Below are positions 3,938-43,037 of a stretch of DNA of 44,350 nt, one piece after another (positions within the stretch are counted from its first letter, which is position 1; the number at the start of each line of letters is the position of its first letter). The DNA is from a virus. The notes under the pieces are model-generated. The model made no database searches. It had not been told where the DNA came from and saw only the letters and a list, made by a program, of their open reading frames with translations. The position numbers were made by a program, and so were the translations under genes. The DNA lies in the UHGV virus genome UHGV-0187309. One strand, 5' to 3'.

Positions 3938-4097
3938 TACAAAGCTCTCCTTCAAGAATGTATGGGATAGTCAATCCTCAAAACGAACAAATATTCTTAT
4001 TGAAATCTGTGCAACCCTACAAAGTTTATCAAAGACTTTTCAACGCTGAAAACGTTAGAAATGCGAAATTTGGCGTAGGCATTGCATCTTTGATCAC

Positions 4098-4126
4098 ATT
4101 ATAGCACACAATCGGTGTTTTGTCAA
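4098..4126 (-). promoter_or_regulatory. consensus sigma70 promoter for the repressor operon
   Basis: Reverse strand: TTGACA (4126..4121), 17 nt, gTGcTATAAT (hexamer 4103..4098). Confidence 0.55.
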
Positions 4127-4131
4127 TACAA

Positions 4132-4147
4132 AATTGCACTTGCAATT
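4132..4147. promoter_or_regulatory. candidate operator: perfect palindrome AATTGCA-ct-TGCAATT
   Basis: 16-bp dyad overlapping the -35 of the rightward promoter and lying 6 bp from the -35 of the leftward one. A related half-site, ATTGCA, lies at about 4081..4086. Confidence 0.35.
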
Positions 4148-4168
4148 CGTTTGACGGTGTGATATAAT
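4140..4168 (+). promoter_or_regulatory. sigma70 promoter for the rightward (lytic-side) operon
   Basis: TTGCAA (4140..4145), 17 nt, TGaTATAAT (extended -10; hexamer 4163..4168). About 200-nt leader before ATG 4370. Confidence 0.5.
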
Positions 4169-4369
4169 AGCAATGTCGGTATTCCGCCTACAGGAAAATG
4201 AGACCGAAGGCTGGTGCAGTGTGTCCGTCTTAAGGTGTGTGACAGGACAGACTGCCGGTCAGAGTACCGACAACTTCGCCATCAACCCACTTCGCCACGA
4301 TAGATATACAGAACAATAGAATGGAGCTAATGTTGGAAATACCATAAGTTGCGAAACAGGAGGGCGTAA

Positions 4370-6721: not shown

Positions 6722-6946
6722 GCCGCGGCATTCGGAGCATGGCAATTAGATCATTACATTTGTTAGTCAGGGCGCGCACTGGCGGACAGATGCTCATAGC
6801 GGAAATAACATCACGATTTGGAGTCTGTATAGACTGACAAGGTGTATTTCGTGTGGACATCGTCCCCTGCGTGCCTTTTTCTCTGGGACAGCAGTCGCGT
6901 TATGGGCATCTGCCGCTTGGTGTGTTCCTTGCAGAAAGGAACGATT

Positions 6947-7669
6947 ATGGAAAACGCAAATGTTCAGAATGCTGCCGCTATCACCGATAAGACCACCCTC
7001 GGCGAACTGCTTGCAATGCTTGACCTCGCTGATAAGGCAGGCAAGATGCCGACACCGAGAGAACTGTTTGAGACTGCCGGTTCGCCGATAGCCGATATGA
7101 ATGGCTGCACTCTCTTCAGCAACGGCTTCGCCATCTATCAGAATGTCACTGGGCGCACTGTTGTCTGGCTGCCGTACTGCAAGAGCTTCACCTATTACTT
7201 CGGCAAGCTCCGTGATTCCGAGAAAGACACGCTGACAGAGACCTATGAGCTGCCGGATGGATTTCTGGAAACACAGCCGTGGGTGATCGCAGTAACACTG
7301 ATCGGCGACCATCGTGTGGAGGCAAACAGCATGAACCGCACCGGCAGCCGCAAGGATACCACAGATTATGACAGCGCCGATAACGGCGATAAAGACGGTG
7401 ATGCAGAGGAGGCTTTGGCAGATCCGTATCGCAGGGCATTCAACTGGTATGACGGACGCATGGGCGAGAATCCGCAGGATGCCGTGGAGCGCAGAGAGAC
7501 ACGCGAGGAGATGCTTGCAGACATGACGGACAAGCAGCGTGAAGCCTTTATTATGTACTTCAGGGATGGTATGACGCAGGAAGAGATTGCTTCATATATA
7601 GGGGTAAGCCGTGATTCCATAAATGACAGGCTTGAAGGTGCTTTGAAAAAAGCAAAAAAATATTTTTAG
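6947..7669 (+). CDS. sigma-70 region-4-like HTH protein (possible phage sigma/transcription factor)
   Basis: Start at Met36 of the track ORF (AAAGGAA RBS). C-terminus TDKQREAFIMYFRDGMTQEEIASYIGVSRDSINDRLEGALKKAKK resembles sigma-70 region 4. N-terminal 190 aa unrecognised. Confidence 0.55.
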   Translation: MENANVQNAAAITDKTTLGELLAMLDLADKAGKMPTPRELFETAGSPIADMNGCTLFSNGFAIYQNVTGRTVVWLPYCKSFTYYFGKLRDSEKDTLTETYELPDGFLETQPWVIAVTLIGDHRVEANSMNRTGSRKDTTDYDSADNGDKDGDAEEALADPYRRAFNWYDGRMGENPQDAVERRETREEMLADMTDKQREAFIMYFRDGMTQEEIASYIGVSRDSINDRLEGALKKAKKYF

Positions 7670-17081: not shown

Positions 17082-17144
17082 GCACTGAAAAGACGACAAA
17101 GCGGCGACAAAACGGTTACACCGCACTCTATGGAGGTGAAAACT

Positions 17145-17648
17145 ATGGCGCGTAAGAACAAACGCCTGAAAACAGAATACCACAGAGGTCTCGGTTTTGA
17201 TCCGCGAAAGTATATGACTTCCTACTCCCACCAAACTCGCTGTGAATCAATTCCGACTCCCGACCGTGCTCCAAAGCGCGGCGATATCTGGTTTGCGCGG
17301 CTCGGCACACATCCGAATTCCAGTGTGCAGGGCGGCACCCGTCCCGTTATCATCATTTCTAACGACCTCGGCAACGAACACGCTGACACCGTCAATGTTG
17401 TGCCGATGACCAGACACCTGAAAAAGCCGGAGCTGCCTTGTCACACTCCGCTTTCTCCCGGCAGCATTACCGATAGCAGACAGCCGCTTGAACTGTCAAT
17501 GGTGCTGGCGGAGCAGCTCACAACTGTCAGCAAGAACGCACTTCGCTATTATGCAGGTCATATTTCCGATGACGAAGCTATGAACCGCATCGAAACCGCT
17601 GTTATTGCGCAGCTCAGTCTTGAAAGGAGATATTCCAAATGCCTGTGA
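17145..17648 (+). CDS. PemK/MazF-family endoribonuclease-like toxin with ~45-aa N-terminal extension
   Basis: GGAGGTG RBS before ATG 17145. PKRGDIWFARLG...GGTRPVIIISNDLGNEHADTVNVVPMT is the PemK/MazF core. No antitoxin-like ORF upstream. Confidence 0.72.
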   Translation: MARKNKRLKTEYHRGLGFDPRKYMTSYSHQTRCESIPTPDRAPKRGDIWFARLGTHPNSSVQGGTRPVIIISNDLGNEHADTVNVVPMTRHLKKPELPCHTPLSPGSITDSRQPLELSMVLAEQLTTVSKNALRYYAGHISDDEAMNRIETAVIAQLSLERRYSKCL

Positions 17649-31145: not shown

Positions 31146-31222
31146 ACGCATAACGTGCCCGTTTTGAAACGATGAAACGAAAACTCCCGAATCTGCGTTA
31201 CTTTGATTTCGCAAAGATACAC

Positions 31223-31405
31223 TCATTCAGATTTCTTGTCTCCGCCAAGCTCGATCTTTCCGTGCTTTTCCTCATATTTTTCAATGCAGTCACGGATCAG
31301 GATCAGAACCTGACTGTTGGCAGAACGACCTTCGTAATCGGCAACAACGTGAAGTTTATCAAGCATCTCCTGTTCGATACGGATGGATACACTTTTAATA
31401 GCCAT
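31223..31405 (-). CDS. ribbon-helix-helix (CopG/Arc-like) DNA-binding protein
   Basis: 60 aa. MAIKSVSIRIEQEMLDKLHVVADYEGRSANSQVLILIRDCIEKY fits a beta-alpha-alpha RHH. AAAGGAAG RBS. The only minus-strand gene between 4.4 and 44.3 kb. Confidence 0.72.
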   Translation of the reverse strand: MAIKSVSIRIEQEMLDKLHVVADYEGRSANSQVLILIRDCIEKYEEKHGKIELGGDKKSE

Positions 31406-31518
31406 AAAACAACTTCCTTTCAGATATATTATGACTTTATTTTAGACCTGTTTTGTGGTATAATGTTTGAAATGGATATAAAGTGTATCTAAAATATATC
31501 TATAAGAAGTTGTACGAT

Positions 31519-31857
31519 ATGAAAATAGCAATTATTGGCTCACGGGGACTTCATGTGAATGACCTTGAACGGTATCTTCCGGAAGATGTCACAGAAATCG
31601 TCAGCGGAGGAGCAAGGGGCATTGATTCGGATGCGCGGGCATACGCACAGGCACACGGCATTCCGCTGAAGGAGTTTCTGCCGGATTATGAACGCTTCGG
31701 CAGGAGCGCCCCGCTGAAACGGAATCTTGAGATCATCGCTTATGCCGATGTGGTGCTTGCATTCTGGGACGGACAGTCACGCGGCACGAAATATGTGATA
31801 GACCATTGCCGGGAACAGCACGTTCCGGTCAGGGTTTTCGCACCGAGAAAGAAATAG
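31519..31857 (+). CDS. SLOG-superfamily protein (DUF2493 / YpsA-DprA-like Rossmann fold)
   Basis: MKIAIIGSRG...VSGGARGIDSDARAYA...VLAFWDGQSRGTKYVI. Preceded by the extended -10 TGgTATAAT (hexamer 31459..31464). Confidence 0.7.
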   Translation: MKIAIIGSRGLHVNDLERYLPEDVTEIVSGGARGIDSDARAYAQAHGIPLKEFLPDYERFGRSAPLKRNLEIIAYADVVLAFWDGQSRGTKYVIDHCREQHVPVRVFAPRKK

Positions 31858-31863
31858 TAATAA

Positions 31864-31936
31864 AGAAGCCATGCAGCAAATTGTGAACATTCTGATACTA
31901 AATCAGATGTTCTGCCGCAGGGCTTCTTTCTATTCT
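31864..31936 (+). terminator. long near-perfect hairpin + T-rich tail after the SLOG gene
   Basis: AAGAAGCC (31864..31871) / GGCTTCTT (31921..31928) closing inner GAACATTCTGAT/ATCAGATGTTC pairs; followed by TCTATTCT. Confidence 0.4.
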
Positions 31937-31992
31937 GTACTATGCACAATCTAAAGGGCAGACACGCCCCGTACATTCTCCGTTTTACAGTC

Positions 31993-32021
31993 TTGCATTC
32001 CGGGGCAAAAGACGGTAATAT
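31993..32021 (+). promoter_or_regulatory. cassette promoter P1
   Basis: TTGCAT 31993..31998, 17 nt, TAATAT 32016..32021. ATG at 32090. Confidence 0.55.
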
Positions 32022-32089
32022 GTGACTACGAAAACGCCGCAGCCCAACGCACAAGGCTGAGGGGCGGCAGTAAAAACGGAGGTAATCAT

Positions 32090-32998
32090 ATGGAAATCAA
32101 GTTCAATATTGAAAAGAGCCAGCGCAAGGCACTGGCACAGAAAATCGGCGAGCTGACAGGAGCAGAGGTCAAGTACCTCGGTGTACCGGGCTGCAGATAC
32201 CAGATCGACTTCTTCACCCTGGACAAAAACGCAGTCCTCAGTTTCAGCGACCGCATCGACACAGATATCGTGGAGAAGGTACTGAATGGGCTTGCAGAGG
32301 CAGGATATGAAAGCAAAACAGTAGCACCGCCGGAAGAAACGGATGCTTCGGCTGAATCAGAGCCGGATATCCCTGACGAACCGAGCAGCGGATTTCCGCT
32401 GCTCGCAAGCATCAGCTTCCCGATTGCAGAGCACACGGTGCAGAGCCTTACAAACCTTATCTGCATGATCCACTCCCGCGGCGCACTTCTCAGCAAGGCG
32501 ACCGGCGGACAGTTCTTCGCAGACAAGAGCCTCGCCGATGCGATCCTCGATGACAAGACCTTCCGCAGCATCCACGAGCTTATCGCCTACATCAGAGTAT
32601 GGGAGGAAACGAATCCCGAACTGAAGGGCATCCGTTTCGCCGATGACAAGCTGATCTTTGACGGCTTCGGTGCAGCGCAGGATGCCGAAACGGTGCAGAC
32701 CTTCACCAAGCTCGCCACAGCCATGAACAGGATGGCGATCACGCAGAAACGTGTGCAGGCAAAGGATGTCGATGACAGCAACGAAAAGTACGCACTCCGC
32801 ATCTGGCTGATCCGCCTTGGGCTGAACGGCGCAGACTGCAAGGTTGACCGCAAGCGCCTCATGGCTCCGCTTTCCGGACACACCGCATTCCGCAACGATG
32901 CGGAGCGTGTGCGCTGGGAGGCAAAGCAAAAGGCAAAGCGTGATGCTGCCAGAACCGAACTGACCGAGGAGGATGAAAACGATGCAGTTTCCGAATGA
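32090..32998 (+). CDS. hypothetical protein (C-terminal module shared with the amidoligase)
   Basis: 302 aa, GGAGG RBS. Acidic linker. C-terminal EKYALRIWLIRLGLNGADCKVDRKRLMAPLSGHTAFRN. Confidence 0.75.
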   Translation: MEIKFNIEKSQRKALAQKIGELTGAEVKYLGVPGCRYQIDFFTLDKNAVLSFSDRIDTDIVEKVLNGLAEAGYESKTVAPPEETDASAESEPDIPDEPSSGFPLLASISFPIAEHTVQSLTNLICMIHSRGALLSKATGGQFFADKSLADAILDDKTFRSIHELIAYIRVWEETNPELKGIRFADDKLIFDGFGAAQDAETVQTFTKLATAMNRMAITQKRVQAKDVDDSNEKYALRIWLIRLGLNGADCKVDRKRLMAPLSGHTAFRNDAERVRWEAKQKAKRDAARTELTEEDENDAVSE

Positions 32999-33230
32999 AA
33001 GACAGCTCAGAGCCTTGCGGGAGCGTTATCCCGCAGGCACCCGCATCCGACTGAAGCATATGGATGACCCTTATGCACCCGTACCGCCCGGCACGGTCGG
33101 CGAGGTTCAGATGGTTGATGACGGCGGCAACATACACATGGTCTGGGAGAATGGCAGAACGCTCTCCCTTATAGACGGTGTCGATGATTTCCAGGTCATT
33201 TCTGACCGCAATGGGGGCTCCGGAAAATAA
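32982..33230 (+). CDS. DUF4314-like protein
   Basis: YPAGTRIRLKHMDDPYAPVPPGTVGEVQMVDDGGNIHMVWENGRTLSLIDGVDDF. Second ATG chosen (GAGGAGG 9 nt upstream). Confidence 0.68.
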   Translation: MQFPNERQLRALRERYPAGTRIRLKHMDDPYAPVPPGTVGEVQMVDDGGNIHMVWENGRTLSLIDGVDDFQVISDRNGGSGK

Positions 33231-33343
33231 GAGATCCTATTCCATTGTATCCGAGTATACCATAGAATTTCAAGTATATCAAGTGTACACATACACCAGA
33301 TATGAGCAATGTATTTTCCTCGATATTCTGTGGTTTTAGCGGC

Positions 33344-33372
33344 TTGCTATATCCTCCGAAAGACGGTAATAT
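33344..33372 (+). promoter_or_regulatory. cassette promoter P2
   Basis: TTGCTA 33344..33349, 17 nt, TAATAT 33367..33372. Conserved leader to ATG 33428. Confidence 0.55.
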
Positions 33373-33427
33373 GTGACACAACGGAAGGGCAAACGCCCAC
33401 CGAAAAACCGAATCGGAGGATACCAAA

Positions 33428-34372
33428 ATGACTGAGAAAACCGCACAGCAGATCAACAGAATGAAGGAGCAGACCATCGGGGTTGAGATCGAGATGAACA
33501 ACATCACCCGCAAGGCTGCCGCAAAGCTCGCCGCCGACTTCTTCGGCACGAACCGCTACGAGGACACGGCCTGCCGCAACGGCTACGAAACCTACAGTGC
33601 TTGGGACGCACAGGGACGCGAGTGGAAATTCCAGAAGGACGTCAGCATCGCAGGCCCCGACAGCGAAAAGTGCGAACTGGTCACACCGATCCTGCACTAC
33701 GCAGACATCGAAACCCTGCAGGAGCTTGTGAGAAGGCTCAGAAAGGCAGGAGCGCGCAGTGATTACACGCGGGGATGTGGAGTCCACTGCCACATTGGAG
33801 CCCAGGGACACACACCGCAGAGCCTCAGAAACCTCGCAAACCTTATGGCAAGCCACGAAACCCTGATCGCCGAGGCAATCAGAGTAGACCAGAGCAGAAT
33901 GCACCGCTACTGCAGAACAGTTGACCCGAGATTCCTTGAACAGCTCAACCGCAAAAAGCCCACCACGATGGCACAGCTTGCGGACATCTGGTACGGCGCA
34001 CAGGGCTGCGAATACGGCAGAACCCACCACTACAACGACAGCCGCTATCACATGCTCAACCTCCACGCTACCTTCACCAAAGGCACGGTCGAGTTCAGAC
34101 TTTTCCAGTTCGCACCGCCTTCCAACGGCAAGCAGAACGGGCTCCACGCAGGCAAGCTCAAGAGCTACATTCAGCTCTGCCTCGCAATGAGCCAGATGGC
34201 AAAGGACCTGCGGAGCGCCAGCCCCAAGGAACAGCAGAAGGAAAACAAAAAGTTCGCCATGCGGACTTGGCTGATGAGAATGGGATTCATCGGGGATGAA
34301 TTCGCAACGGCGAGAGAGGTCCTCACTGAGAACCTTACGGGCGACAACAGCTTCCGCTTCGGCAGATCTTAA
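33428..34372 (+). CDS. putative amidoligase (Amidoligase_2, glutamine-synthetase-like fold)
   Basis: QTIGVEIEMNNITR...GREWKFQKDVSI...CELVTPIL...GCGVHCHIG...TVEFRLFQ. Pattern recalled from the Amidoligase_2 family. Confidence 0.75.
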   Translation: MTEKTAQQINRMKEQTIGVEIEMNNITRKAAAKLAADFFGTNRYEDTACRNGYETYSAWDAQGREWKFQKDVSIAGPDSEKCELVTPILHYADIETLQELVRRLRKAGARSDYTRGCGVHCHIGAQGHTPQSLRNLANLMASHETLIAEAIRVDQSRMHRYCRTVDPRFLEQLNRKKPTTMAQLADIWYGAQGCEYGRTHHYNDSRYHMLNLHATFTKGTVEFRLFQFAPPSNGKQNGLHAGKLKSYIQLCLAMSQMAKDLRSASPKEQQKENKKFAMRTWLMRMGFIGDEFATAREVLTENLTGDNSFRFGRS

Positions 34373-34637
34373 AGGCCTGCCCTTCGGGGCGGAAGAACAA
34401 GCGGAACGGCACGGCGGCGCACACAGCCGCCACGGTCTCGGCTCTCGCCTCGGTCGGTGCTTCTGCTTCGCAGAGGTTGCCACTGGCAACCCGCACCCCC
34501 GTGTGTGGCGGAAAGGGTATCCTCCGAATCGGTATCCCATCTCAGTCAACCGCGCCACACAGCGCAAATGTAGGCAAGGCATAAAATGCACAACATACGG
34601 CACAGAATCGCCCTCGATGATCTGTTCATTTACCCGC

Positions 34638-34666
34638 TTGATAATGCCGCCGAAATGAGTTAACAT
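34638..34666 (+). promoter_or_regulatory. cassette promoter P3
   Basis: TTGATA 34638..34643, 17 nt, TAACAT 34661..34666. Confidence 0.45.
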
Positions 34667-34705
34667 AGCACTACCGCAAGGAAAAAACGCAAAGGAGAAC
34701 ATAGC

Positions 34706-35173
34706 ATGAACAAGAAAAAATACTACATAGCCTACGGCAGCAACCTCAACATCCGCCAGATGCGATTCCGCTGCTCAGGCGCAAAGCCCATCGGCATTTC
34801 CGCGATTCCTGACTACGAACTGCTCTTCAAGGGCAGCAAGACGGGAGCGTACCTCACCATCGAGCCGAAGGACGGCGGGCTTGTTCCGGTCGCCGTGTGG
34901 GAAGTGACAGCCGACGATGAGAAGCACCTCGACATCTACGAGGGCTACCCGAACTTCTACTACAAGAAGGAAGTCCGCCTGCCAATCAGGCTGGCAAACG
35001 GCAAGACCAAAAAGGTCACGGCATTTGTCTACATCATGCACGAGGAGCGTGAGATTGCGATCCCGTCAATGACCTACATCCGCACCTGCGAGGAAGGCTA
35101 CCGCAACTTCGGCTTCGACACCAAGTTCCTTGATGCCGCCTACGAGATCAGCGCAAAGGAGGTACAGCGATGA
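34706..35173 (+). CDS. gamma-glutamylcyclotransferase (GGCT/AIG2-like)
   Basis: YYIAYGSNLNIRQMRFRC...LVPVAVWEVTADDEKHLDIYEGYPNFYYK. Confidence 0.82.
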   Translation: MNKKKYYIAYGSNLNIRQMRFRCSGAKPIGISAIPDYELLFKGSKTGAYLTIEPKDGGLVPVAVWEVTADDEKHLDIYEGYPNFYYKKEVRLPIRLANGKTKKVTAFVYIMHEEREIAIPSMTYIRTCEEGYRNFGFDTKFLDAAYEISAKEVQR

Positions 35174-35370
35174 AAGACCGCAACAAAGAGCCGCACATCT
35201 GCCCGAAATGCGGGCAGGCGTACACCGCCCGACCAGCTCTTTCCCGCGTGGATAACAGCCCAATCTGCCCCGACTGCGGAACGCGTGAAGCGCTTGAAAG
35301 CATCGGCGTCGGACGCGAGGAACAGGACAAGATTCTCGGCATCATCCACGAGAAGTACGAAGGCGAATAA
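35170..35370 (+). CDS. small zinc-ribbon protein
   Basis: CPKCG...16 aa...CPDCG. ATGA overlap with the GGCT gene. Confidence 0.6.
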   Translation: MKDRNKEPHICPKCGQAYTARPALSRVDNSPICPDCGTREALESIGVGREEQDKILGIIHEKYEGE

Positions 35371-35378
35371 GTCGGCAC

Positions 35379-35400
35379 AAAGGGGCGTTACAGCCCCTTT
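35379..35400 (+). terminator. GC-rich stem-loop without U-tract (terminator or RNA stabiliser)
   Basis: AAAGGGGC gttaca GCCCCTTT. Confidence 0.3.
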
Positions 35401-35527
35401 CCGCATTCTCAGGGATAACTTATCCCCCACTTTCCGGGCGTGACACGGCGCGTTCTGGCGCAAACTATGTACCTGTTCAGCTTGCTGAAAACGGCGATTC
35501 TTCTACGATTTATTTTGCACATAGGCG

Positions 35528-35556
35528 TGGACTTTTCAGGCAAAAGGCGGTAGTAT
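35528..35556 (+). promoter_or_regulatory. cassette promoter P4
   Basis: TGGACT 35528..35533, 17 nt, TAGTAT 35551..35556. Confidence 0.5.
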
Positions 35557-35613
35557 GTGACACAACGGAAGGGCAGACAGCCCACCGGAATTCATAACAT
35601 GGAGGATACGAAC

Positions 35614-36084
35614 ATGAACGACAGCTACTTTGAGGAGATGACCTTCCAGTGCGCCGCCTATGAACGCGCCAAAAAGGAGCGCGCCGAGCGCAAGGCTCAG
35701 ATTGCCGAAGCCCACGGCTACGACAGCCCGGAGGTGGACGCTTGGTACGCTGAGGAGAAGGCGGCAGGTCCTTACCCCTACAGCGGCAATGAGATGAAAG
35801 CCTACTGGGTGTACAAGATGCGCCGCGAGAACGACGGTGACGAGTTCGAGATGAGCGATTACTGCTGGGACAAGGAATTCCACGATTTCATCGAAACGCT
35901 CCGCAAGCTAGGCATCACCGAGTTCACGATCACCAATCAGAGCACGGCGCTGATGGAGAACATCTACGGATTTATTGCAGAAGGCTGCACGATGGTCGGA
36001 ACGCACACCATCACCAAGAAGAGCCTGCGCTGGGGCGAGGAAGAATACGAAACGGCACAGGGCATCCTTTTCAAGGTGAACTGA
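35614..36084 (+). CDS. hypothetical protein
   Basis: Start at the ATG preceded by GGAGGATACGAAC, the same RBS spacing as the other cassettes. 156 aa. Confidence 0.65.
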   Translation: MNDSYFEEMTFQCAAYERAKKERAERKAQIAEAHGYDSPEVDAWYAEEKAAGPYPYSGNEMKAYWVYKMRRENDGDEFEMSDYCWDKEFHDFIETLRKLGITEFTITNQSTALMENIYGFIAEGCTMVGTHTITKKSLRWGEEEYETAQGILFKVN

Positions 36085-36092
36085 TATCGACA

Positions 36093-36116
36093 GGAGCAGG
36101 GCTTCGGCTCTGCTCC
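36093..36116 (+). terminator. 10-bp stem with TTCG loop, no U-tract
   Basis: GGAGCAGGGC ttcg GCTCTGCTCC. The 21-nt core GCAGGGCTTCGGCTCTGCTCC recurs at 38541..38561. Confidence 0.3.
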
Positions 36117-36201
36117 CCTCCCCCTTTTCCTCATGTGTAAATCCTACAATACGAAAGGCTGAGATCGGCGATTCTTCTACGTTTTATTTTGCACATAGGC
36201 G

Positions 36202-36230
36202 TGGACTTATCAGCAGGATCATGGTAATAT
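36202..36230 (+). promoter_or_regulatory. cassette promoter P5
   Basis: TGGACT 36202..36207, 17 nt, TAATAT 36225..36230. Confidence 0.55.
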
Positions 36231-36285
36231 GTGACACAACGGAAGGGCAGAACGCCTACCGAAAAACGAAACGGAGGATAACACC

Positions 36286-36606
36286 ATGAACCCCTACACA
36301 CTGAGAAAGAGCCTGAACCTGATTGATGCCAACACGGCGATCACCCGCGAGGACTTCGAGAGCCTCTTCTGCAAGACTGCAGAGCGTGTCACCTTTACCT
36401 TCAACGGTTGGGACGGCAAGAGCTATGATGGCGAGAGGCGCAGCGGTTACGTTTACCGCACCATCATCGAGGGCTACGAGAATGTGAGATTCGTTAAGGT
36501 CGGCAAGGGACTGCATTACATCGATGAGGACAGCAGCATTACCGAGAAGGCTACGGGCATCGCCCACAAGGAAGCAGAGTGGCTGGTCGATGTGAAGAGA
36601 GCATAA
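36286..36606 (+). CDS. hypothetical protein
   Basis: 106 aa, CGGAGGATA RBS. Confidence 0.65.
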   Translation: MNPYTLRKSLNLIDANTAITREDFESLFCKTAERVTFTFNGWDGKSYDGERRSGYVYRTIIEGYENVRFVKVGKGLHYIDEDSSITEKATGIAHKEAEWLVDVKRA

Positions 36607-36672
36607 GCAAAACAGCGGAGCCCTTCCTGCGGGGAGGGCTTACCGCAGAAAAAAACATGGAGGTTTACGAAC

Positions 36673-37056
36673 ATGAGTACGAATTCAAGAGTCGGAATTC
36701 TGCATCAGGACGGCGTCACGGAGACAATCTACTGCCATTGGGACGGCTACCCCGAACACCAGATGCCCATCCTCACCGAGCATTATAACACCGCCGAGAA
36801 GGTCAAGGCACTGCTTGCCCTTGGAGACATCAGCATCCTCGGCGAGCGCCTTGCTCCCGATGCGGATGAGCCGCACAGCTTTGAAAAGCCTGCCGATGGT
36901 GTGACGGTTGCTTACCACCGCGACCGCAAAGAGCCGATGCAGCCTGCGGTCACCCACAAGAGCGTTGTTTCCCTGATGAGCGATGACTGGGGCATTCCGT
37001 ATTACTACCTTTTCGATGAGGAAAAAGGAGCATGGCTTCCGCCGACCGAGGACTGA
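36673..37056 (+). CDS. hypothetical protein
   Basis: 127 aa, GGAGG RBS 9 nt upstream. Probably co-transcribed with 36286..36606. Confidence 0.65.
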   Translation: MSTNSRVGILHQDGVTETIYCHWDGYPEHQMPILTEHYNTAEKVKALLALGDISILGERLAPDADEPHSFEKPADGVTVAYHRDRKEPMQPAVTHKSVVSLMSDDWGIPYYYLFDEEKGAWLPPTED

Positions 37057-37236
37057 TAGGTTCAGCCCTGCGGGGCTGACTTGCCCCACGTTGTCCTTTG
37101 TGCGGTTTTCCTGCGATAAGCTTGCCCCTGCGGAAAGCCGCCTCACACGGCGCGTTTGTGTGCCTCCTGTGGGCTTGGTGCTATGTATACAACAAATGGC
37201 GCAGATACGCCGATTTTGTTCTGAACATTTAGCCGC

Positions 37237-37265
37237 TTGCTATTCCGGAAAGATCATGGTAATAT
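37237..37265 (+). promoter_or_regulatory. cassette promoter P6
   Basis: TTGCTA 37237..37242, 17 nt, TAATAT 37260..37265. Confidence 0.55.
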
Positions 37266-37321
37266 GCTACACAACGGAAGGGCAAACGCCCACCGAATAC
37301 AAAACACGGAGGTAAACCACC

Positions 37322-37687
37322 ATGACAAAGAAGGAAATGAAAGCCGCAGTTGCCAAGCTGAAGATGCTGCAGAACGGCAAAGCCGCCCTTGAGGGAATGA
37401 CCGAAGCGGACTGCCTTGAGCTTTTCGGGATCAGCAGAGCGCAGGCACTTGCAAACACAAACGCCGCCCTTGCCAAAACCGAGCAGGAGATTTTCAGAGC
37501 CGAGCATCCGCTGACAGGCATCGACAAACAGCTCTTCGAGATCGCAGCAAAGCACCTGATCACGGTGCAGGAGCGCGGAGACCTTGAAGCCCGCCACTGC
37601 GACAGCGAGGACTTCATCGAGGGTTCGGTCTGGGGGCTGGAAGCCGCCCTCAAGGATGCCTACGAGGCAGGACGCAAGAGCAAGTAA
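37322..37687 (+). CDS. hypothetical protein
   Basis: 121 aa, CGGAGGTAA RBS. Confidence 0.65.
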   Translation: MTKKEMKAAVAKLKMLQNGKAALEGMTEADCLELFGISRAQALANTNAALAKTEQEIFRAEHPLTGIDKQLFEIAAKHLITVQERGDLEARHCDSEDFIEGSVWGLEAALKDAYEAGRKSK

Positions 37688-37749
37688 CCAAACGGAACAG
37701 CGCAGCCCTTCCGCAGGGAGGGGCTGCCAATCCCGAAGGAGGAAAGAAC

Positions 37750-37929
37750 ATGGATACATACGCACAGCTTGAAATGCTGACCGCAGTCATCGCAAACCTG
37801 TCGGCCACGGGAACATGGACGGAGCGAGAAGTGATGGAAACGCTGCTGGATGTCTTTGAACCGAAGGAGCTTGAACAGCTCGGCTACGGCGACTGCGTGA
37901 ACGCATACTTGGAAGAGTACGGCGGATAG
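37750..37929 (+). CDS. small hypothetical protein (59 aa; below the ORF-track cutoff)
   Basis: Own translation: MDTYAQLEMLTAVIANLSATGTWTEREVMETLLDVFEPKELEQLGYGDCVNAYLEEYGG. GGAGGA RBS 7 nt upstream. Confidence 0.5.
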   Translation: MDTYAQLEMLTAVIANLSATGTWTEREVMETLLDVFEPKELEQLGYGDCVNAYLEEYGG

Positions 37930-38099
37930 CGACGACACACGCACCACGTTGCCTCGTGTGGGGCGGTGCCGGGGAGATGCGTACAGCTTGCCCCTGCGAA
38001 AAGCCGCCTTACACGGCGCGTTCTGGCGCGTCCTATACGATGTACAATTCCGCCCGACTTCCCGCCTCATGTTTGTCACATTTATTTTGCAGACAGACG

Positions 38100-38128
38100 T
38101 GGACTTTTCTGCGAAAAGACGGTAATAT
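38100..38128 (+). promoter_or_regulatory. cassette promoter P7
   Basis: TGGACT 38100..38105, 17 nt, TAATAT 38123..38128. Confidence 0.55.
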
Positions 38129-38175
38129 GTGACTACCGCAAGAGAAGCGGAATCAATCAAAAGGAGCGAATCTAC

Positions 38176-38529
38176 ATGAAAATTCTGGTATGCGAACCCG
38201 GCAAGCACCCCTACGTCAAGGACATCGAGTCGGGGCTGGAGAACCTTCAGCACGAGGTGGACGGACTGATTCAGGCCCTCTACCCATTTTCCGAAGAGGC
38301 GGCTGTTGTGTGCAACGAAGAAGGGCTGTTCCGCGATGACCTCGAATGGAACAGAACGGTCGATCCCTATGGTCCGATCAAGGGAACATTCTTCATTTGT
38401 GGGCTCGGCTTTGAAGATTTTACAGGACTGACCGATGAACAGATCGAAAAGTACACTAAGCTCTTCTGGCCTCCTGAGCTTTTCATCCCGACACCGAACG
38501 GCATGGTGGTGCTTCACATTGTGGAATGA
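38176..38529 (+). CDS. DUF3846-like protein
   Basis: MKILVCEPGKHPYVKDIESGLENLQHEVDGLIQALYPFSEEAAVVCNEEGLF...GTFFICG. Confidence 0.72.
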   Translation: MKILVCEPGKHPYVKDIESGLENLQHEVDGLIQALYPFSEEAAVVCNEEGLFRDDLEWNRTVDPYGPIKGTFFICGLGFEDFTGLTDEQIEKYTKLFWPPELFIPTPNGMVVLHIVE

Positions 38530-38632
38530 CCGCAACAGGGGCAGGGCTTCGGCTCTGCTCCGCACTATTCCCCGGTCATAATGTACACAACTGAACGCCG
38601 AAAAATGCAGAAATGATCGTGATTACTCACGC

Positions 38633-38661
38633 TTGATAATGTAGGCAAGAAGAGTTATACT
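38633..38661 (+). promoter_or_regulatory. cassette promoter P8
   Basis: TTGATA 38633..38638, 17 nt, TATACT 38656..38661. Confidence 0.5.
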
Positions 38662-38718
38662 GTGTACAACGGAAGGGCGGAAAGCCCAGCCGAAAACGAA
38701 AATGCGGAGGTACACACC

Positions 38719-38898
38719 ATGAAAACGAAGCAGGAACTGATCGAGAAGGCAAAGAAAGAGTGGGGCGAGACTTGGAACGAGGGCATGATCGAGTACGATG
38801 CCGAGTACAACGAGTACATCGTCTGGGTAGGCAAGCCGGACATCTACAAAGCCTTCTTCGATGCCGACACCCTCAGATGCATTGGCACGAAGTGCTGA
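38719..38898 (+). CDS. small hypothetical protein (59 aa)
   Basis: CGGAGGTAC RBS. MKTKQELIEKAKKEWGETWNEG... Confidence 0.55.
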   Translation: MKTKQELIEKAKKEWGETWNEGMIEYDAEYNEYIVWVGKPDIYKAFFDADTLRCIGTKC

Positions 38899-38953
38899 GA
38901 ACAACCGCCGCCCTTCGGGGCGGCACAACACCAATACTAAGGAGGACATTTAC

Positions 38954-39226
38954 ATGAGCGAGAACACAGAAAAGCGCGATGCAGCCGAAGAACTAGAACT
39001 TACCGATGCACAGGCAGACCGCAACGATGACATCTACGAGGCAGCTTTTGAATTCTGCAAGGTGCTGACCGAGAACCCCGACCTCGAATGGGACATGGCG
39101 TTCCTCGGTGAGATCGCCGACCTTGCCGCTGGCATCATGACCGAGCAGGGACACAAGGTGCGGTTCCCCAGTGTGGTCACCGAGCAGGACGGCACGCAGT
39201 ACATTGAAGAATACTACGGCGGCTGA
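38954..39226 (+). CDS. hypothetical acidic protein
   Basis: AAGGAGGA RBS. 90 aa. Confidence 0.6.
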   Translation: MSENTEKRDAAEELELTDAQADRNDDIYEAAFEFCKVLTENPDLEWDMAFLGEIADLAAGIMTEQGHKVRFPSVVTEQDGTQYIEEYYGG

Positions 39227-39427
39227 TCGGCAAAACGGAGCAGTCCTTCTGCGGAGGGGCTGTTCCACGCCACGTTCGCTTGTGTGGGGGGCTTACGGCT
39301 TTCTGCGGATATCTTGCCCCGCGATAAAAGCCGCCCACACGGCGCATTTGTGTGCCTCCTGTGGCAAGGCATAATATGTACAACAACCGACAAAAAATCG
39401 CCTTGCACATTCTGGTAGTTTAGCCGC

Positions 39428-39456
39428 TTGATATATCTGCCGAAAAGAGTTATAGT
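39428..39456 (+). promoter_or_regulatory. cassette promoter P9
   Basis: TTGATA 39428..39433, 17 nt, TATAGT 39451..39456. Confidence 0.5.
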
Positions 39457-39512
39457 GTGTACAACGGAACGGGAAACCGAGCCGAAAACTACGAAAGAAC
39501 GAGGTAAACACT

Positions 39513-39749
39513 ATGTGGCACGAAGGCACGATTCTGGCACCGACCAAGGAAGGCAAGACGGTGGTTCACTACTGGGCAAAGGTCTACGACGAGGGCAGCC
39601 AGTACGGCATCAACGAGGGCAGAATCAGTAAACTGACACTCAAGGAGAATGGCAAGGTCATCTACAACTATGACAGAGGCGAGGATGTACCCGAGCAGAA
39701 CGAGGCTGCGGAGATTGCCCTTGCGATCCTGATGTACGAGTACAAGTAA
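39513..39749 (+). CDS. hypothetical protein
   Basis: 78 aa. RBS-like CGAGGTAA 7 nt upstream. Confidence 0.6.
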   Translation: MWHEGTILAPTKEGKTVVHYWAKVYDEGSQYGINEGRISKLTLKENGKVIYNYDRGEDVPEQNEAAEIALAILMYEYK

Positions 39750-39837
39750 ATAGAACGGTCGGTAGGCGGTAGCATTAAGCCGCCCATCCAAACCAAGACG
39801 GACACACATATAAATTCAAGGTGGATATACATAGGAG

Positions 39838-39866
39838 AGGCTTGCAGCACGCAGGCCTTTTCTTTA
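39838..39866 (+). terminator. rho-independent terminator immediately upstream of terS
   Basis: AGGCTTGC agcac GCAGGCCT (one G.U pair) followed by TTTTCTTT. Confidence 0.5.
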
Positions 39867-39897
39867 TGCAGATTTTTTGAGAAAAGGAGTGATGCGG

Positions 39898-40371
39898 ATG
39901 GCTCAGAGAGGCAGAAAACCGACGCCGACAGCAATCAAGGAACTGGAAGGCAATCCCGGAAAACGACCGCTGAATGATGCAGAGCCGAAGCCGGAACGCA
40001 AGGCACCGCCCTGTCCGAAGTGGCTGGAGCCCGAAGCAAAAAAGGAATGGCGCAGGCTGTCAAAGCAACTGGAGCAGATTGGTGTGCTGACCGAGGTCGA
40101 TCAGGCGGCATTCGCATCCTACTGTCAGGCATACGCACGATGGAAAGAAGCCGAGGAATTCATGACCCAGCACGGCACGATCGTAAAAACAAAATCAGGT
40201 TACTGGCAGCAGGTTCCGCAGGTATCCATTGCGCAAACTTATCTGAAGATCATGAACAAGATCGCAGAGCAGTTTGGCCTGACCCCGGCGGCAAGAAGCC
40301 GTATCACTGCCGGCGCAGATATGAAAAACGCTGCCGTTGACGATATGGATGAACTTCTCGGAGGTGGCTGA
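39898..40371 (+). CDS. terS: terminase small subunit (P27 family)
   Basis: MAQRGRKPTPTAIKELEGNPGKRPLN...PKWLEPEAKKEWRRL...FGLTPAARSRI. AAGGAGTG RBS. Confidence 0.85.
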   Translation: MAQRGRKPTPTAIKELEGNPGKRPLNDAEPKPERKAPPCPKWLEPEAKKEWRRLSKQLEQIGVLTEVDQAAFASYCQAYARWKEAEEFMTQHGTIVKTKSGYWQQVPQVSIAQTYLKIMNKIAEQFGLTPAARSRITAGADMKNAAVDDMDELLGGG

Positions 40372-43037
40372 TGGCGAGAACGGCAAAGGCAAGAGAAAGA
40401 CCTGCCAACTATCCGAAACTGAAGGATTATAAACCGACACGCTTTATGCTGCCGGAATCGCACTACGATGCGGCAAAGGCTGACCGAGCTGTGCGGTTCA
40501 TCGAGAATCTCTGCCATACCAAAGGACGCTGGGCAGGCAAACCGTTCTGGCTGCTTCCGTGGCAGGAACAGATCATCCGGGATATTTTCGGCATCGTCAA
40601 AGAGGACGATATGCGGCAATTTCGTACCGCCTATGTCGAAATTCCAAAGAAAAATGGGAAGCAGCTTGCACTGGATACACCGATCCCGACTCCGCAGGGA
40701 TTCACCAATATGGGAGATCTGAAGGTCGGAGATACAGTATTCGATGAAAACGGCATTCCGTGCCATGTGGTTGCGAAAAGTCCTGTGGATGATACAGAGC
40801 AAGCCTACAAGCTGACCTTCAAGGACGGCACCTCGATCATTGCCGGGGAAAGGCATCTGTGGAACTGTCAGTATATTTACGGCAAACGCAAGGATGTTCT
40901 CTGGACGACCGGCGAGATCTATCGCAGGACAACGGAATACAGACAGCGTTTTTCCGACAGACCACAGACAAAGCGGGATTCCCTTATCCGAATTCCGGTG
41001 TGCGGTGTCCTTCAGACAGAAGCGGCAGTTTTACCGATTGATCCGTATCTGTACGGCTACTGGCTCGGAAACGGTAATGTGACCATGCCGGAGATCACTG
41101 TTCGGACGGAGGATGTCGAGGATATCATCTCGAATATTCCGTATAAGGTACACAACCGTTATCCGCAGAAATGCGGCGGCAGTGAGATCATAAAGTACAA
41201 TGAACTGAAAGCAGTACTACTTGACAGCTTCCGTGAAAAGAAGATCCGACCAGAATATCTGAGGGCATCCGCAGAGCAGAGATGGGCATTACTGCAAGGG
41301 CTTATGGATTCGGACGGCTGTATCGGCGAACGCAAAGGGCAAAGTGTGTATGTCACAACGCTGCGAGAGCTGGCGCTTTCCGTCAGAGAACTGCTGTGGT
41401 CACTCGGCATCAAAAATGCAGTGAAATGTGAGCCTTCTACACGGCATGGGTGGCCGACCGGCGAGATTTTGTATATCGTCCGTTTTACAACCTTTGATGG
41501 CCAACCGACATCAAGGCTTAAACGCAAAAATACACGCACACAGGCGCGGTTAAAGGAAACTCGCTCCTGTTTTCATTATCTGCTGGATATTCAACCTGTA
41601 AATCATCCTGTAAAAATGCAGTGCATTCAGGTGGACAGTCCGAGTCACCAATATCTCGCAGGACCGTCATTTGTGCCTACGCACAACAGTGAGCTTGCAG
41701 CGGCAATTGCACTGTATCTGCTCTACGCCGACAACGAGCCGTCTGCTGAGGTCTACGGCGCTGCTGCTGATCGTGGGCAGGCATCCATTGTATTCGATGT
41801 CGCCAAAAGAATGGTTGAGATGACACCGGCACTTCTGAAACGCTCAAAAATCATGGCGGCGACAAAGCGTCTGGTGAATTACAGTAATGTTGGCTTTTAT
41901 CAGGTGCTTTCAGCGGAAGTCGGTACAAAGCACGGATTGAATGTATCCGGTCTGGTTTTGGATGAACTTCATGCCCAACCGAACCGCAGCCTTGTGGATG
42001 TTCTCACAAAGGGTTCCGGTGATGCCCGTACTCAGCCGCTGTACTTCCTGATCACAACCGCCGGAACGGATCGCAACAGCATCTGCTACGAGTATCACAC
42101 GAAAGCAAAAGATATTCTGGACGGCAGGCGCATTGATCCGTCCTTCTATCCTGTGATCTACGGCTTGAACGATGATGACGACTGGAACGCAGAGGAGTCA
42201 TGGTATAAGGCAAATCCCTCGCTCGGATACACTATCGCCATCGACCGAGTCCGCGATGCTCACCGGGAAGCCCTTACAAATCCCGCTGAAGAAAATGTAT
42301 TCCGTCAGCTGAGGCTTGACCAGTGGGTAGGCAGTGCGGTGGCATGGATTCCGGAGCATATCTACGACAGGGGCAATCTTCCGATCGACCTCGAAAAGCT
42401 CCGGGGACGGGAGTGCTACGCAGGTCTTGACCTATCCAGCACATCGGATATCACGGCATTTGTGCTGGTGTTCCCTCCGCTGCATGACGGCGAGAAATAC
42501 ATCGTTGTCCCGCACTTCTGGCTGCCGAGAGAAACGCTCGATTTGCGAGTACGGCGAGACCATGTTCCCTACGATGTATGGGAGCGCATGGGATTATTTC
42601 ATATCACCGAGGGCAATGTGGTCGATTACAATTTCGTGCGGAAAACGATCAACGAGCTGCACACGATGTACAACATCAAGGAAATTGCTGCCGACCGCTG
42701 GAATGCCACACAGCTTATCACAGACCTTGAGGGAGACGGATTTACCGTTGTTCCGATGGGTATGGGCTTCAAGGATATGTCCCCGCCGATGAAGGAACTG
42801 TACAAGCTCATACTCGAGGGGCAGTTTATCCACGGCGGCAACCCTGTACTCCGCTGGATGGCAGGAAATGTGGTCGCTGAAATTGATGCAGCGGAGAACA
42901 TCAAACCAAGTAAAAAGAAAAGTACAGAAAAGATTGACGGTATCGTGGCATGGATCATGGCACTTGACCGCTGCATCCGCCACGAAATGCAGGGCAGTGT
43001 CTATGACGAACCCGGCCACGATCTTGTGGTCATCTGA
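40371..43037 (+). CDS. terL: terminase large subunit (Terminase_1 type) interrupted by an intein in the Walker A loop
   Basis: Exteins join as EIPKKNGK|SELAAAIALYLLYADNEPSAEVYGAAADRGQA. Downstream LVLDELHA (Walker B) and a nuclease domain. 546 aa without the insert. Confidence 0.92.
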   Translation: MARTAKARERPANYPKLKDYKPTRFMLPESHYDAAKADRAVRFIENLCHTKGRWAGKPFWLLPWQEQIIRDIFGIVKEDDMRQFRTAYVEIPKKNGKQLALDTPIPTPQGFTNMGDLKVGDTVFDENGIPCHVVAKSPVDDTEQAYKLTFKDGTSIIAGERHLWNCQYIYGKRKDVLWTTGEIYRRTTEYRQRFSDRPQTKRDSLIRIPVCGVLQTEAAVLPIDPYLYGYWLGNGNVTMPEITVRTEDVEDIISNIPYKVHNRYPQKCGGSEIIKYNELKAVLLDSFREKKIRPEYLRASAEQRWALLQGLMDSDGCIGERKGQSVYVTTLRELALSVRELLWSLGIKNAVKCEPSTRHGWPTGEILYIVRFTTFDGQPTSRLKRKNTRTQARLKETRSCFHYLLDIQPVNHPVKMQCIQVDSPSHQYLAGPSFVPTHNSELAAAIALYLLYADNEPSAEVYGAAADRGQASIVFDVAKRMVEMTPALLKRSKIMAATKRLVNYSNVGFYQVLSAEVGTKHGLNVSGLVLDELHAQPNRSLVDVLTKGSGDARTQPLYFLITTAGTDRNSICYEYHTKAKDILDGRRIDPSFYPVIYGLNDDDDWNAEESWYKANPSLGYTIAIDRVRDAHREALTNPAEENVFRQLRLDQWVGSAVAWIPEHIYDRGNLPIDLEKLRGRECYAGLDLSSTSDITAFVLVFPPLHDGEKYIVVPHFWLPRETLDLRVRRDHVPYDVWERMGLFHITEGNVVDYNFVRKTINELHTMYNIKEIAADRWNATQLITDLEGDGFTVVPMGMGFKDMSPPMKELYKLILEGQFIHGGNPVLRWMAGNVVAEIDAAENIKPSKKKSTEKIDGIVAWIMALDRCIRHEMQGSVYDEPGHDLVVI
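40662..41687 (+). mobile_element. 342-aa intein (apparent class 3, Gln at position 1) with LAGLIDADG endonuclease domain
   Basis: QLALDTPIPTPQGF... block A. GERHLW (Trp two residues after the block B His). LYGYWLGNGN and LLQGLMDSDGCIG (LAGLIDADG pair). MQCIQVDSPSHQYLAG (block F Cys). VPTHN|S at the C-terminal junction. Confidence 0.78.

Follow-up and report, generated by a model that had tools for sequence, protein, structure and literature searches.

A conserved two-tier hairpin in the 5′ leaders of accessory-gene cassettes of a Ca. Heliusvirales-like prophage

The virus genome UHGV-0187309, a stretch of 44,350 nucleotides (nt) that was analyzed whole and is called the window below, carries an array of nine short transcription units at about 31.9-39.8 kb, between DNA methylase genes and terS. 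Nine sigma-A-like promoters, P1 to P9, head these units, and the leaders behind six of them (P2, P4, P5, P6, P8 and P9) share a small hairpin near the predicted start of the transcript. The locus thus raises the question of whether this hairpin is a structure that selection maintains in the RNA and, if so, what it does there. Our analysis indicates that it is very probably a selected RNA structure within a portable expression module. That it serves this module as a 5′-terminal protective and insulating element is suggested by its position and composition and by analogy with known elements, and we give this proposal about an even chance.

Six leaders in the array share a two-tier hairpin

All six hairpins lie exactly where the initial annotation had placed them (Table 1). 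RNAfold returned the same two-tier fold, an outer CGG/CCG stem and an inner stem of GGGC/GCCC or CGG/CCG, as both the minimum free energy (MFE) and the centroid structure in six of six leaders, with energies of -9.1 to -14.7 kcal/mol and z-scores of -1.9 to -3.9 against dinucleotide shuffles. A near-consensus sigma-A-type promoter precedes every copy (TTGCTA, TTGATA or TGGACT, 17 nt, then TAATAT, TAGTAT, TATACT or TATAGT), the leader sequence ACAACGGAA begins 4-5 nt 3′ of the -10 hexamer in all six, and a strong ribosome-binding site (RBS) lies about 30 nt 3′ of the hairpin. The window holds eight exact matches to ACAACGGAA, six of which are in these leaders, compared with a chance expectation of about 0.3 computed from length alone. 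A covariance model was built from related sequences and then searched against the window. This search yielded exactly six copies, scoring 39.5-55.6 bits (E 6e-9 to 7e-6); the seventh-best match, at 16 bits, is probably a decayed copy at 38581-38609.

Some details of the shared sequence needed correction. The hairpin had been described as followed by CCGAA(A/T)A and, further on, by (C)GGAGG; both descriptions hold in general, except that P4 has CCGGAAUU at the first of these places and P9 has CGAGG at the second. The P9 inner stem had been presented as a compensated version of the others. Its structure is indeed present, as a 3-bp helix whose register is shifted and which has a 2-nt bulge on the 3′ side, and not as a column-wise compensation.

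Table 1. Coordinates of the leader modules, junction elements and phage genes in the window
Feature	Position	Strand	Details
P1	32016-32092	+	-10 TAATAT 32016-32021; leader start UACGAAAAC; ATG 32090
P1 hairpin	32036-32068	+	longer; GCCGC 32036-32040 / GCGGC 32064-32068
P2 module	33344-33430	+	-35 TTGCTA 33344-33349; -10 TAATAT 33367-33372; ACAACGGAA 33378-33386; RBS CGGAGG 33414-33419; ATG 33428 (amidoligase_2 gene)
P2 hairpin	33382-33402	+	CGG/CCG plus GGGC aaac GCCC; -11.6 kcal/mol; 52.2 bits
P3	34638-34708	+	-35 TTGATA 34638-34643; -10 TAACAT 34661-34666; short, hairpin-less sister-family leader ACUACCGCAAGGAAAAAACGCAAAGGAG; ATG 34706 (GGACT gene)
P4 module	35528-35616	+	-35 TGGACT 35528-35533; -10 TAGTAT 35551-35556; ACAACGGAA 35562-35570; ATG 35614 (DUF7698 gene)
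P4 hairpin	35566-35587	+	GGGC agaca GCCC; -13.0 kcal/mol, z -3.6; 45.7 bits
P5 module	36202-36288	+	-35 TGGACT 36202-36207; -10 TAATAT 36225-36230; ACAACGGAA 36236-36244; ATG 36286
P5 hairpin	36240-36261	+	GGGC agaac GCCU, one G.U pair; -9.1 kcal/mol; 49.7 bits
P6 module	37237-37324	+	-35 TTGCTA 37237-37242; -10 TAATAT 37260-37265; ACAACGGAA 37271-37279; ATG 37322 (DUF6900 gene)
P6 hairpin	37275-37295	+	GGGC aaac GCCC; -12.9 kcal/mol; 55.6 bits
P7	38123-38178	+	-10 TAATAT 38123-38128; sister-family leader UACCGCAAGAGAAGCGGAAUC; ATG 38176 (DUF3846 gene)
P7 single stem	38136-38150	+	CCGC 38136-38139 / GCGG 38147-38150; -6.2 kcal/mol
P8 module	38633-38721	+	-35 TTGATA 38633-38638; -10 TATACT 38656-38661; ACAACGGAA 38666-38674; ATG 38719
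P8 hairpin	38670-38692	+	GGGC ggaaa GCCC, 2-nt 3′ bulge AG; -14.7 kcal/mol; 39.5 bits
P9 module	39428-39515	+	-35 TTGATA 39428-39433; -10 TATAGT 39451-39456; ACAACGGAA 39461-39469; ATG 39513 (DUF7678 gene)
P9 hairpin	39465-39484	+	inner stem CGG gaaa CCG, 2-nt bulge AG; -10.6 kcal/mol, z -3.9; 41.8 bits
Second -10-like boxes	34583-34600; 37183-37196; 38581-38609; 39373-39400		5′ of P3, P6, P8 and P9
D3 junction repeats	37108-37172; 37974-38038; 39300-39364		partial copy 35438-35468
GGGGGUGCGGGUUGCCAGUGGCAACCUCUGCGAAGCAGAAGCACCGACCGAGGCGA element	34440-34510	-	antisense, between amidoligase gene and P3
CI-like S24 repressor	3065-3955	-	
Phage sigma-like factor	6842-7669		
PemK/MazF-like gene	17130-17648		172 amino acids (aa); toxin domain aa 49-160
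terS	39898-40371		
terL	40371-43037		888 aa

Pairing is conserved while the sequence changes

Related leaders were sampled blind to the hairpin, by scanning for the promoter -35 region only and then extracting all promoter-plus-leader units from every locus, which yielded 850 instances and 485 distinct promoter-leader units. By their starts these fall into families A (ACA(A/G)CGG, 156 distinct leaders), A2 (ACAACGC, 5), B (ACAACRA, 33), C (UACCG, 119) and F (ACAAUGG, 6), with 166 further leaders of various starts, false promoter matches included. The six leaders of the window are of type A. Folding energies of -5 kcal/mol or below were obtained for 98% of the 156 type A leaders, with a mean of -9.8 kcal/mol and a mean z of -3.2 against dinucleotide shuffles.

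Both tiers of the fold occur in several base-paired versions. Read from a separate MFE fold of each sequence, the inner stem is most often GGGC/GCCC (73), CGG/CCG (26), GGC/GCC (9) or GGGCG/CGCCC (5), and it also appears as AGGC/GCCU, AGG/CCU, CGGC/GCCG, GCG/CGC, GCGG/CCGC and GGCA/UGCC; a single copy has the fully zipped stem CGGAAGGGC/GCCCUUCCG. The outer stem is mostly CGG/CCG and in some copies CGGC/GCCG, type A2 has CGC/GCG instead (the Heliusvirales phage PV036433 is one example), and the sister family C has CCG/CGG, CCGC/GCGG or CCGG/CCGG. The loops are 3-8 nt long and of many sequences (AAA 24, GAAA 16, GGAAA 15, AGACA 13, AAAC 8, and others).

We then counted pairs formally on a structure-blind MAFFT alignment of 132 distinct sequences, using 500 shuffles. 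Paired cells made up 84.4% of the total, against 78.9% in the shuffles, and dropped to 24-48% when the 3′ partners were slid by 1-3 columns; the covariation score was 0.107, against 0.047. For neither measure did any of the 500 shuffles reach the observed value. The inner-stem pairs comprised 528 Watson-Crick, 14 G.U, 2 A.C and 11 other pairs, and the 14:2 ratio of G.U to A.C points to the transcript, hence the sense strand, as the place where the arms pair. The proposal that selection acts on RNA structure rather than on sequence is supported by compensatory variants in both tiers, free variation of the loop and the excess of G.U over A.C.

The leader belongs to a portable promoter-leader module

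What the initial annotation had treated as six leaders of one array proved to be one type of a portable module, consisting of promoter, 5′ untranslated region (UTR) and RBS, which occurs in many phages and in front of many genes. An exact-pattern scan found the type A leader in at least 118 IMG/VR stretches, many with two to five copies. In these stretches the conserved block runs tctgtacatttagccgcTTGCTAT, 17 nt, TAATAT, 4-5 nt, ACAACGGAA and hairpin in its 5′ half, and (A/G)CCGRAAWAC, an A-rich tract, YGGAGG, 8 nt and ATG in its 3′ half. The module is also present in prophages of Oscillospiraceae, Ruminococcus and other Clostridia metagenome-assembled genomes (MAGs), from the gut of human, sheep, horse and rabbit; the host placement comes from a species-genome scan anchored on the DUF7678 protein, whose 10 loci are too few for statistics.

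Promoter, leader and gene are not fixed to one another. A covariance-model search of 100 promoter-anchored loci added just 12 type A copies, the promoter at these loci mostly driving other leader families. The open reading frames (ORFs) behind the sampled leaders form 29 protein clusters, and most clusters carry more than one leader type, from which it follows that promoter-leader and gene have been recombined repeatedly. Furthermore, the low-GC Peptostreptococcaceae phage TPDSL_ph1 of Terrisporobacter (PP197246) has the module before two amidoligase genes (3830-3941 and 4900-5013), in the version TTGCTAT, 17 nt, ATATAT, gtac and UACCGAAAGG or UACCAAAAGCCAAucaaguUUGGCUU. Its presence there indicates that the module is much older and broader than the type A leader.

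Searches of existing collections returned little. The P6 module (113 nt) had no BLAST match among GenBank phages and PLSDB plasmids, the element being too short and divergent for BLAST, and the type A leader is essentially confined to metagenomic contigs and MAGs. Rfam 15 gave no match at gathering score anywhere in the window and, at E of 5 or below, no sense-strand leader match in 31000-40400; a PhotoRC-I match on the minus strand of the P8 hairpin (38669-38692) scored 17.5 bits against a gathering score of 45 and was put down to chance. A full-text literature search for the leader sequence found no match, and the Heliusvirales paper mentions neither promoters nor hairpins nor intergenic elements. 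The leader is an undescribed, widespread cis-element of a familiar kind, namely a 5′ UTR hairpin on moron-like phage accessory cassettes.

Position and composition suggest a 5′-terminal protective element

In the type A leaders, ACAAC follows the -10 hexamer after 4 nt (89 leaders) or 5 nt (67). This constant spacing predicts transcription to start at an A of ACAA, which would place the stem 2-4 nt from the 5′ end and agrees, on promoter geometry, with the earlier suggestion that the hairpin lies within a few nucleotides of the end. The type A UTR is 46-59 nt long (about 52), with 44% A and 5.5% U, and the spacer, A-rich and nearly free of U, is scarcely able to pair with anything. The spacing from the Shine-Dalgarno (SD) sequence to ATG is 8 nt in 122 of the 156 leaders, and YGGAGG is strongly favored over AGGAGG (CGGAGG in 113).

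The 5′ ends of the other module types look similar. A 5′-proximal hairpin is present in 243 of 313 distinct leaders, spanning all module types, and an SD-like 5′ tract in 36 more; hairpin-less relatives of the leader carry such a polypurine tract (GAAAGG) at the same place. 5′ hairpins and SD-like polypurine tracts are two known kinds of Gram-positive 5′ stabilizer. Against a generic Firmicutes anti-SD sequence, which may not be that of the host, the first 18 nt of every leader type pair at -7 to -8 kcal/mol (shuffled -4.3 to -6.0, true SD -9.4 to -9.9); the type A value is -8.1 kcal/mol (shuffled -6.0, true SD -9.8), and the tract there lies inside the hairpin.

We propose that an intrinsic terminator, a sigma-A-type promoter, a 5′ UTR of about 52 nt and a strong RBS, in this order, form a module heading each small accessory-gene cassette. 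A start at an A of ACAA would put the hairpin 2-4 nt from the triphosphate end and make it the first 25 or so transcribed bases. There it could occlude the 5′ end from 5′-end-dependent decay, which would involve an RppH-type pyrophosphohydrolase and an RNase J1-type 5′ exonuclease. By locking up the G and C residues of the leader, it would also leave the A-rich RBS region open whatever gene is attached. The outcome would be uniformly high, context-independent expression of each cassette. Such stable and independent expression would fit the upstream terminator, the G+C hairpins 3′ of the genes, the U-poor spacer and YGGAGG 8 nt from ATG.

Several points weigh against this proposal or against the structure on which it builds. 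The overhang of 2-4 nt is itself predicted from promoter geometry. A passive cap leaves unexplained why the flanks (ACAACGG, A9, the AA internal loop, CCG and GAAWAC) stay near-invariant while the stem changes, why the 5′ arm is always G-rich and why YGGAGG is preferred over AGGAGG. In 70 of the 313 leaders the 5′ end falls below the hairpin threshold, and P3 is without a hairpin. Leaders such as P3 show that the module can do without a hairpin. The type B hairpin starts some 5 nt deeper in the leader (the median index of the first paired base is 9, against 4), a poorer fit to occlusion of the 5′ end. Finally, rare stem mismatches are uncompensated (GCCA, AGGC/GCCC, CAGG/CCG, outer CCU or CCA), and the cell counts given above overstate the number of independent events, since many of the sequences are close relatives.

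Alternative explanations

The near-invariant flanks direct attention to an RNA operator, by which a trans-acting phage or host protein would co-regulate all cassettes; this could be the site of a lambda N/nut-like antiterminator, of a repressor or activator of translation, or of a CsrA-like GGA binder. We consider this unlikely. Such a protein would account for the far stronger conservation of ACAACGG, the AA internal loop, CCG and GAAWAC than of stem or loop, for the motif AACGGA(A/G)G, of which each leader has one copy at the 5′ end and another at the SD, and for the preference for YGGAGG, in most leaders as CGGAGG. Terminators bound every cassette, moreover, and a modified RNA polymerase could read through them; yet a proper terminator directly before each promoter makes regulation by read-through unnecessary. 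The loop and the 3′ bulge (A, G, AG, GA, CA, UG and others) vary freely, unlike those of the boxB, MS2 and PP7 operators, GGA is located in the stem and internal loop, whereas CsrA prefers it in a hairpin loop, and the same gene families are also headed by sister leaders whose flanks differ. Pfam and PHROGs scans, covering most of the larger ORFs and all genes in or next to the array, found no N-, Q-, LoaP- or CsrA-like gene, which is weak evidence given that N-like proteins are small and divergent. A fuller version, in which ACAACGG...CCGRAAWAC and the repeated AACGGARG form the operator of a dedicated RNA-binding regulator that switches all accessory (probably anti-defense) cassettes together, and in which repeats at the cassette junctions (D3, described below) act as exchange sites, appears more doubtful still.

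Two of the named candidates were rejected as such: a lambda-type boxB, as the loop is not conserved and the scanned ORFs hold no N-, Q- or LoaP-like gene, and a CsrA-type site (ACA-GGA), as GGA is in the stem rather than the loop and no csrA gene was found among the same ORFs. The initial annotation had also named the MazF-like RNase as a possible partner of the leader. The window does encode a MazF/PemK-like gene, for which no separate antitoxin ORF was identified, within the replication module; nothing connects it to the leader, where ACA occurs only at the extreme 5′ end and UACAU is absent.

Alternatively, function may reside in the polypurine, SD-like tract of the 5′ end (GGAAGGG or GAAAGGG), which would bind the 3′ end of 16S rRNA as a STAB-SD-type stabilizer or standby site, with the hairpin only modulating its exposure. 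We hold this to be improbable, even though the first 18 nt of all leader types exceed their shuffles in anti-SD pairing, CG(A/G)AAGG is conserved from Oscillospirales phages to the Terrisporobacter phage even without a hairpin, and the 5′ arm is always G-rich. In type A the tract is buried in a hairpin (-9 to -15 kcal/mol) on which selection itself acts; variants whose 5′ arms (CGG, GCG, GCGG) are not SD-like nevertheless keep the fold, and the anti-SD sequence used was a generic Firmicutes one and not that of the actual host. The 3′ arm GCCCACCG was also considered as a partner of the SD sequence CGGAGG and rejected: five of six pairs form in GGGC-type copies, and the pairing fails in CGG/CCG-type copies.

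The element might instead work as DNA, either as a repressor operator over +1 to +25 or as an initially transcribed sequence that governs start-site choice or promoter escape, the inverted repeat being incidental. Conservation does set in exactly at the predicted start site, where it exceeds that of the 4-5 nt separating -10 from ACAAC, the element always comes together with the promoter, and the window encodes a CI-like repressor and other helix-turn-helix proteins. However, the arms covary as their sequences change, the G.U to A.C ratio confines the pairing to the sense strand, and the arms differ in spacing by up to 5 nt, which a dimeric operator would not tolerate; these three observations also led us to reject a palindromic dimeric DNA operator specifically. 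In addition, the same promoter drives quite different leader starts (UACCG, ACAAUGG, type G), and no similarity to the CI/Cro intergenic region (3956-4369) was found. A DNA-level function thus seems quite improbable.

Least probable of all, to our judgment, is that the hairpin has no function of its own and that the promoter-leader block is conserved by recent duplication, by gene conversion or as a homology patch for cassette shuffling: single gene families do carry different leader types, the same leader stands before at least 29 unrelated families of small proteins, arrays are mosaic with whole-cassette differences between 96%-identical phages, and decayed module copies lie 5′ of several promoters, but loops and A-rich spacer have drifted apart freely while the stems have kept their pairing by way of double changes, the mean z is as low as stated above, and the mapped breakpoints of cassette insertions or deletions fall in the D3 repeat and not in the leader.

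Some further identities were rejected directly. A terminator or attenuator does not match, since (G)AAWAC and an A-rich tract come after the hairpin where a U-tract would be needed, the leaders have little U and the terminator scan was silent at these sites; a riboswitch does not match either, 7 bp being too small. A single-stranded DNA promoter of the leading region of a plasmid or integrative and conjugative element found no support, as the window is a double-stranded DNA tailed phage (terS, terL) and no plasmid match was found.

Comparison with known elements

For a protective and insulating 5′ hairpin, the nearest counterparts, as cited in PMC3997798, are the 5′-terminal stabilizing stem-loop of the B. 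subtilis aprE leader (Hambraeus et al. 2002) and the 5′-terminal stabilizing hairpins of E. coli ompA and papA (Emory, Bouvet & Belasco 1992). Insofar as that source describes them, they share with our element a short stable hairpin, here predicted to lie a few nucleotides from the 5′ end, in a UTR with a strong RBS, in which pairing matters and loop sequence does not; the messages are here expected to be highly expressed. In contrast to these, the present element is two-tiered, has near-invariant single-stranded flanks and a purine internal loop, and belongs to a mobile module with up to six copies per phage and many gene families; it has no sequence similarity to them. The same source cites the cryIIIA STAB-SD (Agaisse & Lereclus 1996) and the polypurine 5′ stabilizer of phage SP82 (Hue, Cohen & Bechhofer 1995). 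As described there, both resemble our leaders in having a purine-rich SD-like tract at the 5′ end of the UTR, far 5′ of the real RBS, and the SP82 element is likewise a phage leader; they differ in that the tract is base-paired in the six leaders and its complementarity to the anti-SD is partial, with wobbles.

The lambda nut sites are similar in that a conserved single-stranded sequence adjoins a small G+C hairpin with a purine-rich, often GNRA-like loop, near the start of phage transcripts that end at terminators. Unlike nut sites, the leaders have no conserved loop (AAA, AAAC, GAAA, AGACA, GGAAA and others) and no boxA consensus, no N-like protein was detected in the ORFs scanned, and each unit is driven by a promoter of its own, with a terminator upstream to insulate it. 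The phage morons associated with the names of Juhala and Hendrix are said to be promoter-gene-terminator insertions. The cassettes agree with them as autonomous units with promoter and terminator of their own that carry accessory genes between the core modules of a temperate phage, and differ in forming a tandem array of nine with a standardized promoter-UTR module and repeated junction elements. As in Rfam cis-regulatory leaders, a conserved 5′ UTR structure shows covariation; unlike them, it matches no Rfam 15 family.

Sister leaders, junction repeats and cassette exchange

The three remaining units with a described leader, P1, P3 and P7, have the promoter class of the six type A units and a leader of the sister family C, starting with UAC(C)G. 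In agreement with the initial annotation, P1 and P7 carry other hairpins and P3 is without one (-1.1 kcal/mol by RNAfold); a hairpin-less leader of the P3 type was found again in at least 9 loci. A second -10-like box with ACAAC (for example cataatatgtACAACAACCGACAAAAAATCGCC) lies about 80 nt 5′ of P3, P6, P8 and P9. In the covariance-model search these boxes scored 16.3 bits at 38581 and 9.6 bits at 37183; they look like decayed module copies without the hairpin core, or are possibly weak tandem promoters.

At the junctions between cassettes lies a 65-nt repeat, D3, whose copies are 74-75% identical and fold as a long imperfect hairpin (GUGUGGGGCGG...CCGCCUUACAC). Window positions 38022-39270 are absent from four 96%-identical relatives, and as both breakpoints fall inside D3 copies, the P7 and P8 cassettes were evidently gained or lost by D3 recombination. 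Pairing between the two UTRs of a transcript, of CGUUGU in D3 with ACAACG in the leader, is possible in two cassettes and not in others, and was judged to be chance. A structured G+C-rich element, GGGGGUGCGGGUUGCCAGUGGCAACCUCUGCGAAGCAGAAGCACCGACCGAGGCGA, lies on the minus strand between the amidoligase gene and P3. In other phages it has the sense orientation and follows the module promoter immediately, forming a long leader or noncoding RNA, and it has no Rfam match; the junction at 34434-34497 is a break point in many relatives. This array architecture, with standardized modules and with junction repeats where cassettes come and go, may be the more interesting lead.

The phage and its cassettes

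The window represents a temperate tailed phage, either integrated in a Clostridia genome or assembled from one, and more precisely a Ca. Heliusvirales-like prophage of gut or rumen Clostridia. The closest deposited genomes are 'NatCom' gut phages classed as Ca. Heliusvirales, at just 67-73% identity across the amidoligase region. A rightward block for replication and nucleotide metabolism encodes a sigma-like factor, a DUF2800 nuclease, SSB, DNA polymerase A and an SNF2 helicase, followed in its second part by the PemK/MazF-like protein, D5 primase, SAM synthetase, NrdD/NrdG, a ParB-methylase and further methylases. The array products are small: two are amidoligase-like, others belong to GGACT, DUF4314, DUF7698, DUF6900, DUF3846 and DUF7678, and several have no family in Pfam or PHROGs. 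A U-tract terminator lies just 5′ of each -35 (for example 37197-37212 and 35482-35497), and G+C hairpins lie 3′ of the genes. The layout is of the moron type, each accessory gene having its own promoter and terminator and being sited between core modules.

Some cassettes are bicistronic, with spacers (36607-36672, 37688-37749 and 38899-38953) that each contain a G+C hairpin lacking a U-tract (for example GAGCCCUUCCugcgGGGAGGGCUU); the downstream gene of such a bicistron is headed instead by a type A module of its own in other phages. Directly 5′ of terS, within 39800-39898, stands a strong U-tract terminator (aggcttgcagcacgcaggccttttcttt, about 39840-39870), and inspection by eye revealed no obvious sigma-A promoter between it and terS, so that late transcription may need read-through or the phage sigma-like factor. 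The terL product is unusually long, and its LAGLIDADG_3 domain at aa 303-369, which is N-terminal to the ATPase and nuclease domains, hints at the insertion of an intein or homing endonuclease.

Implications

Ca. Heliusvirales-like prophages rank with the most prevalent phages that Clostridia of the human and animal gut carry, and nearly all of their accessory genes are functionally uncharacterized. The module provides a simple handle for finding accessory cassettes in metagenomes, by the succession of sigma-A promoter, 5′ hairpin, A-rich and U-poor spacer, YGGAGG, 8 nt and ATG, and it predicts strong, independent expression of the genes they carry. It is also a compact natural expression part for Clostridia, which are hard to engineer, and its covariation qualifies it as a candidate cis-regulatory family to be added to Rfam. 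Should the hairpin be the target of a regulator and not a passive cap, the array of cassettes would be under coordinated control; and if that regulator were a dedicated one, it would define an RNA-level regulon for a standardized array of exchangeable cassettes in a very widespread lineage of gut phages.

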